Source: Rhizobiaceae bacterium
Lineage (GTDB): Bacteria; Pseudomonadota; Alphaproteobacteria; Rhizobiales; Rhizobiaceae
Direction: 5' to 3'
DNA length: 64,000 nt
NCBI GenBank assembly: GCA_965232405.1
Contig: OZ246966.1
Location: 1,417,731 to 1,481,730, forward strand
Shown: one piece after another, positions 57,532 through 60,478 of the stretch
How positions within the stretch are numbered: the stretch's first letter is position 1
Layout: the number at the start of each line of letters is the position of its first letter
The notes under the pieces: generated by a model
What the model was told of the DNA's origin: nothing
Database searches by the model: none
Seen by the model: only the letters and a program-made list of their open reading frames with translations
Made by a program: the position numbers and the translations under genes

Positions 57532-57906
57532 CTACTCGATCAGATTGATCTCTTCCGTCATGCCGCCCTGGCAGACATAACAGCAGGTCTCGCAGCCATC
57601 GACATCGCCGGGGCCGACGCCCCAATAGGTGCCGGGATCGCCGGACACCCAGGCGCCGTAGCAGATCGTCTCGCCCTCCTCGCAGGCGAGCGGCAGCGCC
57701 TTGGTCTCGCCGTCGTCGAGGTAAAACACGTTGCCGTTGCCCGGCCAGATGTGGTCGCGGTCCTGGCTGTAGAGCTCCACCTCAACGGCGAACTCATGAT
57801 GGTTGTTCATCAGGAAGGTGACGTCGCCGGCCGAGGCCGCGCCAAGCGAAAGAAAAAGGGCCGCCAGAGCGGCAGCGGCGCCGCGCGCCATCGCGTTGAT
57901 TGTCAT
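57532..57906 (-). CDS. Small secreted Cys-rich hypothetical protein (124 aa)
   Basis: Signal peptide ending ASA|GD, six Cys (C-x6-C, C-x2-CC-x2-C); ATG 57906 preferred over the longer ORF call. Confidence 0.8.
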   Translation of the reverse strand: MTINAMARGAAAALAALFLSLGAASAGDVTFLMNNHHEFAVEVELYSQDRDHIWPGNGNVFYLDDGETKALPLACEEGETICYGAWVSGDPGTYWGVGPGDVDGCETCCYVCQGGMTEEINLIE

Positions 57907-58101
57907 TGTTGTTCCCCAAAACTCCCGAACGGCCATTCCGGCCGCACAGCGGATATTCGCATGGCGGCGGGTGGAAGTGTAGCGGGCGCTAATGGAATAT
58001 TTGTGCGGTTCAAGGTGGGCGCTGCGCGGCGGCGGGGAGCGGAGGGCAGGCTTTGGACTAAGTCGCAATTCCTGATGCGAGGCGGCCTTCGCAACCGTTC
58101 T

Positions 58102-58267
58102 GGCATGGATCCCCCGGGTCAAGCCCGAGGATGACGACCGGGAGGGGGCCACCGCAAATCATCAGCCGCAGAGAGTTCCATCAAGCGGCGATTTCGGCAC
58201 GGCGATGGAGACTGGCGGAATGCATATCCACTTCGTCATCCTCGGGCTTGACCCGGGGATCCATGCC
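58102..58267. repeat. Inverted pair of REP-like palindromes
   Basis: GGCATGGATCCCCCGGGTCAAGCCCGAGGATGACG (58102-58136) and its reverse complement with one C fewer (58234-58267). Confidence 0.85.
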
Positions 58268-58304
58268 TGACCGTCGCCGCTTCACCTGCATATCAGTCAC
58301 TCGC

Positions 58305-58766
58305 GCTTCATCGTTGCCACGCCCGCCGAAGCGTCTGGCCGTTGCACAGCGCCGTTTCGCGAAGATCGCTGCGCGATCTCGCGGGGCGCTTTCGCGACGA
58401 TCACTGCGTGATCGCGCTATCGCCAGAACCCTATGGGGTTCGGCGTAGGAAGACGGGCGGCCGTTCAGTCGCTCATCTGTAGGTTACGCGCGACCAAAAG
58501 GCCGCCCGTCCGGTGTTCTTGCCCCGAGTACCTCTTTCGAGGTCACCTGACCGCCTTATGTCAGGATATTGTCCGCTCGTGGCTCTCCGCAGCTTTCGCC
58601 TCAGAGGCCGGGCTGGCCACCAATCAAGAGGCCAAGACACAGCTACCCGTGGGCCCGGAGCTGGGGGCTCATCGCCCAGCAGCACCACCGTAGTGCTGCC
58701 GATCCGGCACCGTCCCTGCCACGCTCGCCCGGTTCGCGACCCGCGTTCCCGTGCAGGAGATGAAGC
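58305..58766 (-). ncRNA. Candidate large structured non-coding RNA or non-autonomous repeat element (~460 nt)
   Basis: At least 7 hairpins, GAAA and cUUCGg loops and G-U pairs all favour the minus strand; termini GCTTCATC/GATGAAGC pair; TATCCT just upstream. Confidence 0.6.
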
Positions 58767-59179
58767 AAGGATAAGGGAGATTCAGAGGGCGGGGATAGAT
58801 TTTTTTGGAGGGGCGCGGGAAGACTCGCGAGAGAGATCGAGTGTCCCCTTGGGGAAGGCATTACGCAGCAGTCACCTACGGAATCGCCAACACTATGGCA
58901 TAATGACATATTTATATCTGAAATTTGCAATAATGTCAGTATAGTAGACCCATTCTGCAGTGCAGCGAGAATCGGTTGCGCTGCAATATTTGCAAATGGC
59001 AAAGAATCGGCTTAATGATTGATGCCAGTGGTGCCTGAATGCTGAGTTCAATGCCACTGGGAGGATAGTAGTAAGTTATTGATTTTTAAGAATGTTTTTG
59101 GCGCTCGGTAAATTGAAGCTTTCCGGGCGGGGAGTATTTCTTGACTCCGGTTTCTACTTAGCCCATCAGACAAATGTCC

Positions 59180-59325
59180 AAACAAAGAAACCGCCGCGAA
59201 GCTGGCGAGCCGGCGACGGTTTCCACGTTGACACCCGCACAGACTGAGCGTCGGGCGCGGGCGTATGGCTTTGTAGTACACTGATGTTGAATCAGAATAG
59301 CACGCTATGGTCAAGCCCGACGGTC
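59180..59325 (-). ncRNA. Candidate sRNA or structured leader divergent from the DUF1508 gene
   Basis: Minus-strand 11-bp hairpin GAAACCGTCGC/GCGGCGGTTTC + TTTGTTT, plus a CCCGCGC/GTGCGGG stem. Confidence 0.4.
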
Positions 59326-59353
59326 GCTAACGCCAAGTAAGGGAGATACCCCA

Positions 59354-59563
59354 ATGGCACAGCGTACCTTTCCTTCGTACTGGTTGTACAAGGACAATCG
59401 TGGCGAGTGGCGATGGAGCTACGAAGCCAGTAACGGCAGAACCATCGCTGTAAGTAGCGAAAGCTACAAACGTCGTGTCGATGCCGAACGCAGCATCGAG
59501 ATCATGCGGGAGTCGGCCAACAGTCCGACTTGGTATCCTGCAGATCTTGAGAACGCGGCTTAG
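59354..59563 (+). CDS. YegP/DUF1508 (UPF0339) family small protein, 69 aa
   Basis: YKDNRGEWRW...ASNGRTIAVSSESYKRRVDAERSI motif; SD GGGAG. Confidence 0.88.
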   Translation: MAQRTFPSYWLYKDNRGEWRWSYEASNGRTIAVSSESYKRRVDAERSIEIMRESANSPTWYPADLENAA

Positions 59564-60370: not shown

Positions 60371-60478
60371 TGGGCACGCTGGCGGGACTTGAACCCGCAT
60401 CTCTCCGCTTGTACATTCACGATGTTCAGACGTGATGCCTTAGTGAAACAGAGGCTCTTCCAATTAAGCTACAGCGCG
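60371..60478 (-). ncRNA. tRNA-like RNA (108 nt) with canonical acceptor/D/T arms, encoded CCA and 39-nt anticodon loop
   Basis: Acceptor CGCGCTG/CAGCGTG+C+CCA; U8 A9; D arm GCTT-AATTGGAA-GAGC; anticodon stem TCTGT/GCGGA; variable GAGAT; T arm GCGGG-TTCAAGT-CCCGC. Confidence 0.85.

Follow-up and report, generated by a model that had tools for sequence, protein, structure and literature searches.

Large bacterial RNAs with an elaborate structure that is supported by covariation are rare, and those known from the past have proved to act as ribozymes, as ribonucleoprotein machines or as guides of mobile elements; RNase P, group II introns, OLE and the HEARO/IscB omega-RNA are such RNAs. OLE is a single-copy RNA of about 600 nt that occurs in Firmicutes and has membrane-protein partners, and HEARO RNAs are tied to an ORF for an IscB/HNH-RuvC nuclease and to IS200/605 ends. 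REPINs, palindromic doublets of DNA with a length of about 100 nt, are mobilised by a HUH Y1 transposase. Autoregulatory leaders are single-copy and shorter than 200 nt, while the cuckoo RNAs are formed by tandem hairpins of about 70-100 nt located downstream of an ORF. The element described here resides on the minus strand at about 58304-58797 of the window, the term that we use for the whole stretch of 64,000 nucleotides that was analysed. Its assignment to a new class of large structured RNA is, in our assessment, robust. We further lean, at somewhat better than even confidence, towards a view in which the window carries an orphan copy of a pseudoknotted RNA class that serves as the leader, and as the partner, of a small protein with four conserved cysteines, referred to below as Cys4.

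The element proved slightly larger than the segment from 58305 to 58766 to which an earlier note, made from the letters of the DNA, had drawn attention, and a possible upstream module would stretch it to about 58885. Each of the seven stems listed in that note was refolded, and all of them form on the minus strand: 58358-58383 (10 or more bp with a single bulge, -15.2 kcal/mol), 58398-58414 (7 bp), 58452-58510 (a perfect 11-bp outer stem, -39.6 kcal/mol), 58530-58543 (with a GAAA loop), and, folding just as had been claimed, 58421-58445, 58546-58565 and 58679-58699. The strand on which the tetraloops occur was likewise correctly given, with four GAAA and one CUUCGG on the minus strand and neither of them on the plus strand. 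Relative to dinucleotide shuffles, the minus-strand fold (-247 kcal/mol) reaches a z-score of -4.96, and the plus strand one of -2.89. Other features singled out in the earlier note are present in the window copy but do not characterize the family. The terminal pair GCTTCATC/GATGAAGC is found at the claimed positions but is peculiar to this copy, and the two copies of TGCCACGCYCGCC are placed as described but belong to unrelated helix strands (the 3' strands of P2 and P9). The hexamer TATCCT, which had been read as a -10 element, sits within a conserved, probably transcribed C/U-rich segment and is no family feature either. The region can be called free of ORFs only in the sense that none is conserved among the copies; mechanical ORFs of 64-143 aa overlap it, as is usual for DNA with 65% GC.

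When the minus strand is followed from its 5' end, the element begins with a conserved motif, TATCCCCGCCCTC (58785..58797), whose family consensus is TTATCCAC(G/A)CCC and which is kept in all copies; the 5' end of the transcript is probably located at or near this position. The C/U-rich segment CUCCCUUAUCCU (58768..58779) is predicted to be single-stranded and is unpaired in the consensus folds; it is similar to the anti-Shine-Dalgarno sequence and is conserved across genera in a form resembling CCUCCC(U/G)(U/C)AUAAU. Helix P2 (58713..58762) encloses the hairpin P2a (58723-58742) and GGGAA (58746-58750), the 5' strand of a candidate pseudoknot. It is followed by the 5' strands of two long-range helices, P3 (CGGUG, 58708-58712) and P4 (CCGGAU, 58702-58707), by hairpin P5 (58677-58701), by the nearly invariant hairpin P6 (CUGGG-CGAUGAG-CCCCCAG, 58661-58679) and by the 3' strand of P4 (CUCCGG, 58655..58660). 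The variable P7 region (58521..58654) forms several hairpins in the window copy, two of them with GAAA loops; its length and content vary by copy, and it is a single hairpin in short members of the family. A conserved junction, AAGAA, and the 3' strand of P3, CACCG(G), together occupy 58510..58520 and lead into P8 (58453..58509), which consists of a 12-bp outer helix, an inner helix and a loop of about 15 nt. The candidate 3' strand of the pseudoknot, CUUCCU (58447..58452), is followed by a variable insert of three hairpins (58345..58446) that is missing from family members of 273-330 nt in our alignments. The element ends with the terminal hairpin P9 (58315..58344), CAACGGCCAGAC-(CGC-UUCG-GCG)-GGCGUGGCA, and with the purine-rich 3' tail ACGAUGAAGCG (58304..58314), where the homology between copies stops. 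The P8 loop (58472-58490 in the window, and its homologues) is hypervariable, G-poor and rich in A, C and U, and its flanks are conserved as AC(G/A)U ... GAUGAGCG; a role as a recognition or seed loop, or as an ARN site of the Hfq type, is conceivable.

Upstream of the 5' motif, positions 58798..58885 (minus strand) weakly resemble a module of about 100 nt in other copies, with the layout GTGGAYAAA...CCAACCCCTTG...heptamer repeats, and might form a promoter or regulatory module. Three to four tandem heptamers of the type TAYTCRC precede the TATCC(A/C)C motif, for instance CTACTCAC-TATTCGC-TACTCAC-TACACGC. Such runs are found in the upstream modules of three copies from the same genome (C, D and E, see below) and of the copies of genome G308 (L159-L166), though not in all genera, and they may be protein-binding repeats. 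A promoter and terminator scan on the strand of the element returned no consensus promoter and no intrinsic terminator, and manual searching of the upstream module yielded no fixed -35/-10 pair, with inconsistent spacing.

The surroundings of the window copy comprise a gene for a secreted protein on one side and a low-GC islet on the other. This gene-poor stretch (58800-59340) lies directly upstream of the element; beyond it, at 59354-59563, is a 69-aa ORF beginning MAQRTFPSYWLYKDNRGEWRW, which has a DUF1508/YegP-like appearance. Beside the islet, a 105-nt sequence (60374-60478, minus strand) scores as a tRNA with Rfam (41.3 bits at a gathering threshold of 29); it is an over-long tRNA-like sequence that ARAGORN does not call as a tRNA. 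A separate palindrome of about 180 nt (58094-58274), with arms GGATCCCCGGGTCAAGCCCGAGGATGACG and further copies in the genome, is the source of a spurious match to a plant miRNA (MIR1858). This REP-like repeat is a frequent neighbour of the RNA element but lies outside of it.

The conserved core of the family comprises P2/P2a, a multi-helix junction formed by P3, P4, P5, P6 and P7, P8, and P9. Compensatory base changes support at least six of these helices (P2, P3, P4, P5, P8 and P9) as well as the candidate pseudoknot, and they maintain the core both between paralogues and between genera. In an alignment of the 5' domain (31 sequences, 111 nt), 97.6% of the cells are paired, with double changes at 14 of the 30 pairs; none of 500 shuffles attained the observed value in any of five measures, and slid partners pair in 31-54% of the cells. 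Changes on both sides affect six of the eight pairs of P2 and seven of the eight pairs of P5. For the outer helix of P8, 96.6% of the cells are paired compared with 78.7% in shuffles, the covariation score is 0.466 versus 0.178, and seven pairs have changed on both sides. P3 and P4 each carry several independent compensations across genera: CGGUG/CACCG is replaced by CGGCG/CGCCG, CGAUG/CAUCG or CGGCG/CGUCG, and CCGGA/UCCGG by CCGGG/CCCGG, CCUGG/CCAGG, CCAGG/UCUGG or CGGGA/UCCCG. The outer stem of P9 differs by subtype (GCCA/UGGC versus CCCG/CGGG), and its inner stem-loop, in which GAAA and UUCG tetraloops are swapped, appears as CCG-GAAA-CGG, CGC-UUCG-GCG, CGGC-GAAU-GCCG and CGC-GAAA-GCG. Hence, the conserved secondary structure shows the statistically supported covariation by which structured non-coding RNAs are generally recognized. 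Since G·U pairs, which would become A·C mismatches on the opposite strand, make up about 14% of the helix cells (roughly one in seven), the structure exists only on the minus strand of the window.

The pseudoknot between GGGAA in P2 and UUCCC behind P8 is likely but not proven, as it rests on few independent compensations. GGGAA:UUCCC has changed to GGGAG:CUCCC in two lineages (the copies of genome G006, and L136), and the pairing is lengthened to GGGAAGCC:GGCUUCCC (8-9 bp) in two genera (L145, L147); in a permutation test on the longest complementary run, the G/C-rich strands paired in many registers. A closing helix P1 formed by TATCC(A/C)CGCCC and GGGCGTGG was considered and abandoned. Changes in the 5' motif are not compensated in the 3' motif, which is invariant, and this leaves the 5' motif unproven as a helix strand; the extreme 5' and 3' motifs are only partially complementary and do not covary, and a better account of GGGCGTGG is that it forms the 3' strand of P9. 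The length of complete elements varies from 273 to 562 nt, with the short forms defining the core, and copies differ by entire hairpin insertions; the extra hairpins of the window copy are found at two permissive sites. In three elements from other genera (L133, L139, L135), the inserted hairpins themselves represent copies of CTCATCCTGAGCTTGTCGAAGGATG, a palindrome that is common in rhizobial intergenic regions. Evidently, the RNA accommodates inserted repeats at two defined positions.

With the Rfam 15 models at their gathering thresholds, a cmscan of the whole window reported only the tRNA-like sequence at 60374-60478. When E-values of up to 10 were admitted for 57900-59400, four eukaryotic or archaeal miRNA and snoRNA matches appeared far below their gathering scores, none of them on the element as such; cuckoo-type RNAs did not score in this region. 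The element was equally without an Rfam match at the master loci of four other genomes, and ARAGORN detected neither a tRNA nor a tmRNA. The earlier note had been unable to equate the element with tmRNA, RNase P, 6S, SRP or group I/II introns, and the Rfam and ARAGORN searches bear this out; HEARO, OLE (which matches neither in sequence nor by model), GOLLD, ROOL, raiA, and cobalamin and other riboswitches were likewise dismissed for want of an Rfam match. Group II introns are recognized by six domains, a GUGYG 5' end, a domain V and an AY 3' end. We rejected an ORF-less intron of this type, as the ends of the element read TATCCCC... and ...GATGAAGC, the minimum of about 273 nt is too small, and there is no Rfam match. 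Type III toxin-antitoxin systems combine a tandem-repeat RNA antitoxin with a downstream endoribonuclease toxin (ToxN/AbiE-like); here the RNA is free of tandem repeats, and Cys4 has no match in the Pfam and NCBIfam libraries that were searched. In the searchable literature we found nothing relevant on the element. The proposal in the earlier note of an undescribed, strand-specific large structured RNA is supported by the Rfam null result, the covariation and the strand bias of the G·U pairs. That note had also named ways of checking its proposal, and four of these turned out in its favour: no Rfam or IS family matches, covariation among homologues is strong, genomes carry several copies, and an empty orthologous site exists.

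The genome from which the window derives (3.87 Mb, a single contig) contains, as judged by BLAST, five full copies and at least one fragment. Copy A is the orphan in the window, copies B, C and D are positioned at 1.06, 1.72 and 2.22 Mb, and copy E, at 3.36 Mb, is 69% identical to copy A. A fragment with part of the P2 region (C1:3360870-3360990) lies just upstream of copy E, beside a REP-like repeat. Copies, often at contig ends, were detected in each of the 12 species of the genus (Borborobacter and relatives). With R1, a covariance model of the 5' domain that matches the window copy at 58651-58762 with 97.9 bits and that was used for the distribution and linkage searches, the element was detected in 51 of the 301 genomes sampled from the same GTDB family and in 30 of the 135 genera sampled, with one to at least 12 copies per genome; in about 290 genomes from other families of the order, R1 detected no element. 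A pattern scan of 185,579 species genomes recovered Borborobacter arsenicus CB3, 'Mesorhizobium' sp. Z1-4 and Rhizobiaceae MAGs; the three matches outside this genus (Solirubrobacterales, Gemmatimonadales and one unclassified MAG) gave no model score and were discarded as chance. Further hosts are 'Mesorhizobium' sp. DCY119 and M. zhangyense. Collectively, these data confine the class to a single clade of Rhizobiaceae sensu GTDB with about 30 genera, including several species labelled 'Mesorhizobium'. None of the plasmids in PLSDB carries a copy. According to a crude GC3-based gene call, the element is preferentially found downstream of a co-oriented gene (24 versus 9) and shows no bias with respect to its downstream gene (17 on the same strand, 19 on the opposite one). 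The genes downstream of orphans are unrelated to each other, and orphan loci are syntenic between species, the locus of copy A corresponding to loci in three other species (L025, L029, L037).

One gene, by contrast to these varied neighbours of the orphans, is firmly linked to the RNA. Each of the 17 genomes tested, which represent at least 11 genera, has an R1 match on the same strand as, and within a few hundred bases upstream of, the gene for Cys4, a protein of 85-120 aa with an invariant C-x4-C-x5-C-x9-11-C motif between two long helices. The gene is essentially single-copy per genome. Each genome thus has one master module of RNA plus Cys4, as well as orphans whose number varies and can reach a dozen or more; these are devoid of the Cys4 gene and end in the P9 hairpin, as does the window copy. 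The master in its genome is copy E, with Cys4 encoded at 3361673-3361936. In several genera, a Shine-Dalgarno sequence and a start codon follow no more than about 60-100 nt past the 3' strand of the pseudoknot. Apart from the RNA-Cys4 linkage, no synteny is common to the genera. A SAM_alpha riboswitch (L150 1420-1497, 75.9 bits), situated a few kb from the master module of genome G073, is unrelated to the element. Searches with the Cys4 sequence gave no match in Pfam, NCBIfam, PHROG or the PDB, its AlphaFold model matched no fold, and it contains no nuclease, transposase or HUH motif. A profile search for Cys4 had no match in genomes G006 and G221 despite their many RNA copies (at least 12 in G221); in these, the protein may have diverged, or the RNA may exist and work without it.

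As evaluated from sequence and linkage, the most likely mechanism would be a partnership between RNA and protein, modelled on OLE RNA with its Oap proteins, in which the Cys4 mini-protein would bind the RNA. At the master locus, Cys4, or whatever it senses, would act on the folded leader and thereby control its own synthesis. The orphan copies would be transcribed as stable RNAs that present the same protein-binding fold in trans, as a scaffold or a sponge. The adjacency of RNA and gene, taken by itself, would also fit a purely cis-regulatory leader. With respect to expression, RNA sequencing runs labelled with the species of the organism (X22-24) are polyA libraries with 0 reads at the locus, and a dataset termed a metatranscriptome (X6) was set aside as RNA evidence, since it contains a 235-kb contig and is evidently DNA-like. 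Many metatranscriptomes from soil, ice and compost yield short contigs of the conserved core, all of them unstranded and derived from copies of relatives. Two soil cDNA runs (X51, X52) contain short contigs consisting of the element only, at a k-mer depth of about 13-45; although unstranded and from relatives, this depth is far too high for contamination with the DNA of a minor soil taxon, and it constitutes indirect evidence for transcription.

Several observations on the copies speak for a quite different view, an RNA-dependent non-autonomous mobile element whose upstream module and RNA would be copied together via an RNA intermediate or an RNA-guided step, by a host enzyme or by the Cys4 protein of the master locus acting in trans, and whose fold would be kept for mobility; ORF-less group II introns, HEARO/omega-RNA elements and REPINs mobilised by a single RAYT gene would be its parallels. 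Copy numbers differ between genomes from one to at least 12, and the arrangement of one single-copy gene and dispersed gene-less copies has a RAYT/REPIN-like layout. Several genomes contain groups of copies with identical model scores, near-identical copies occur within genomes G308 and G090, and the aligned copies of G308 have a common upstream module of about 100 nt. The locus of copy C, between an SDR gene and cmk, is filled in two genomes (G000, G004) and empty in four (G011, G003, G002, G006). Such near-identical copies, together with the empty orthologous site, indicate that the element has spread recently, and a plain housekeeping ncRNA would have no need of this. Many copies also sit at contig ends in draft assemblies, and copies frequently adjoin other small palindromic repeats; we propose duplication, recombination between flanking repeats, or an RNA-mediated process as possible routes. 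The machinery expected of a mobile element, on the other hand, did not come to light. All-against-all clustering of the ORFs within ±2.5 kb of 45 loci produced no recurrent transposase, integrase or reverse transcriptase, the clusters consisting only of spurious ORFs inside the element and of syntenic neighbours. Eight G308 copies, most of them near-identical, have boundaries (CTGCGGGACA ... GGCGATGATGRAGC) without terminal inverted repeats or target-site duplications, and, in place of an autonomous partner with a transposase, the only linked gene encodes the family-less Cys4 protein with neither a nuclease or transposase motif nor a known fold; on both grounds, an IS element or MITE was rejected. 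Moreover, the 5' and 3' motifs do not covary, orphan loci stay syntenic across species, and plasmids are devoid of copies. We consider such an RNA-dependent mobile element unlikely. Rather unlikely is a bolder version, a selfish or domesticated, self-folding RNA gene that carries its own promoter, spreads free of a transposase and depends on, or is controlled by, the Cys4 mini-protein in analogy to RAYT and REPINs, its fold (possibly catalytic) being the unit of selection.

Improbable to a still greater degree is a riboswitch-like leader of the Cys4 gene, whose core would recognize a small molecule or a metal and thereby regulate how the mini-protein is translated, and whose orphans would be decaying or re-used duplicates, for instance ligand-controlled sRNAs. 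Aptamers typically have a compact junction of several helices, a pseudoknot and highly conserved joining nucleotides, as this core does, each of the 17 Cys4 genes is directly preceded by the RNA, with the ribosome-binding site close behind the fold at master loci, and the four conserved cysteines suggest a metal-related protein. Yet the minimum of about 270-300 nt exceeds the size of almost all riboswitch aptamers, the scan revealed no expression platform such as a terminator, and orphans outnumber the master up to twelve-fold, with a structure that is kept by compensation and retained across species. For about half of the orphans, the gene downstream is convergent, so that these copies cannot be cis-regulators. 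A repeat acting as DNA, be it a mosaic of the REP/MITE type or clustered protein-binding sites such as the DnaA-box-like TTATCCAC motifs, with no function as RNA, is very improbable. It would account for the intergenic, multicopy occurrence, often beside palindromic repeats such as that at 58094-58274, and for an inverted copy of the 5' motif found about 90 nt upstream in many copies. The motif TTATCCAC(A/G) resembles the consensus of a DnaA box; as a DnaA box or inverted repeat, the pair TTATCCAC / GTGGATAAA is suggestive in some genera but not general, genome G308 having GCGGGACA. A DNA repeat is at odds with the strand-specific fold and its abundant G·U pairs, pseudoknot, long-range helices and GNRA/UUCG swaps: palindromic DNA would look alike on both strands, and no helix-like covariation would be expected of protein-binding sites. 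The high depth of the core in metatranscriptomes, unstranded and from relatives as these data are, also speaks against it.

The partnership of a folded RNA with Cys4, which we favour, can be compared with several known systems. Like OLE with OapA/B/C, the window family is a large, ornate, covariation-supported bacterial ncRNA that is abundant in RNA libraries, and its gene lies directly beside that of a small partner protein. Unlike OLE, it measures 270-560 nt, is multicopy with dispersed orphans, belongs to the Rhizobiales and has a soluble-looking, helical Cys4 mini-protein as its candidate partner. With HEARO/IscB omega-RNA and the IS200/IS605-linked RNAs, it has in common multiple, sometimes near-identical, structured copies, including gene-less ones, whereas no nuclease ORF of the IscB type is present near its copies and the HEARO model of Rfam does not match. 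REPIN-RAYT systems offer the same picture of an element-flanked single-copy gene and many dispersed gene-less intergenic copies; the RNA is three to five times longer than REPINs, shows strand-specific covariation of the RNA type and a pseudoknot, and its linked protein lacks a HUH motif. At the master locus, it resembles ribosomal-protein leaders and trans-acting riboswitches as a structured 5' leader directly before the gene for a small basic protein, and we know of no autoregulatory leader with a dozen structurally maintained orphan paralogues. Cuckoo/CcsR RNAs and their DUF1127 mini-proteins are also alphaproteobacterial and multicopy, with a tiny protein gene and C/U-rich (CCUCC-like) motifs, but the RNA studied here precedes its ORF, measures 300-500 nt and folds into a pseudoknotted core of several helices.

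This family offers a handle on the roles of orphan ornate RNAs and on the multiplication of RNA genes without a recognisable transposition apparatus, and it is experimentally appealing, since it involves only one protein gene and a few RNA loci in an alphaproteobacterium that can be cultured. OLE/Oap, HEARO/IscB and REPIN/RAYT each have one or two traits in common with it, and the whole combination is present in none of them: an unusual trio of a core of about 300 nt with a candidate pseudoknot in about 30 genera, up to a dozen or more structurally maintained copies per genome, and a fixed link of one copy to Cys4.
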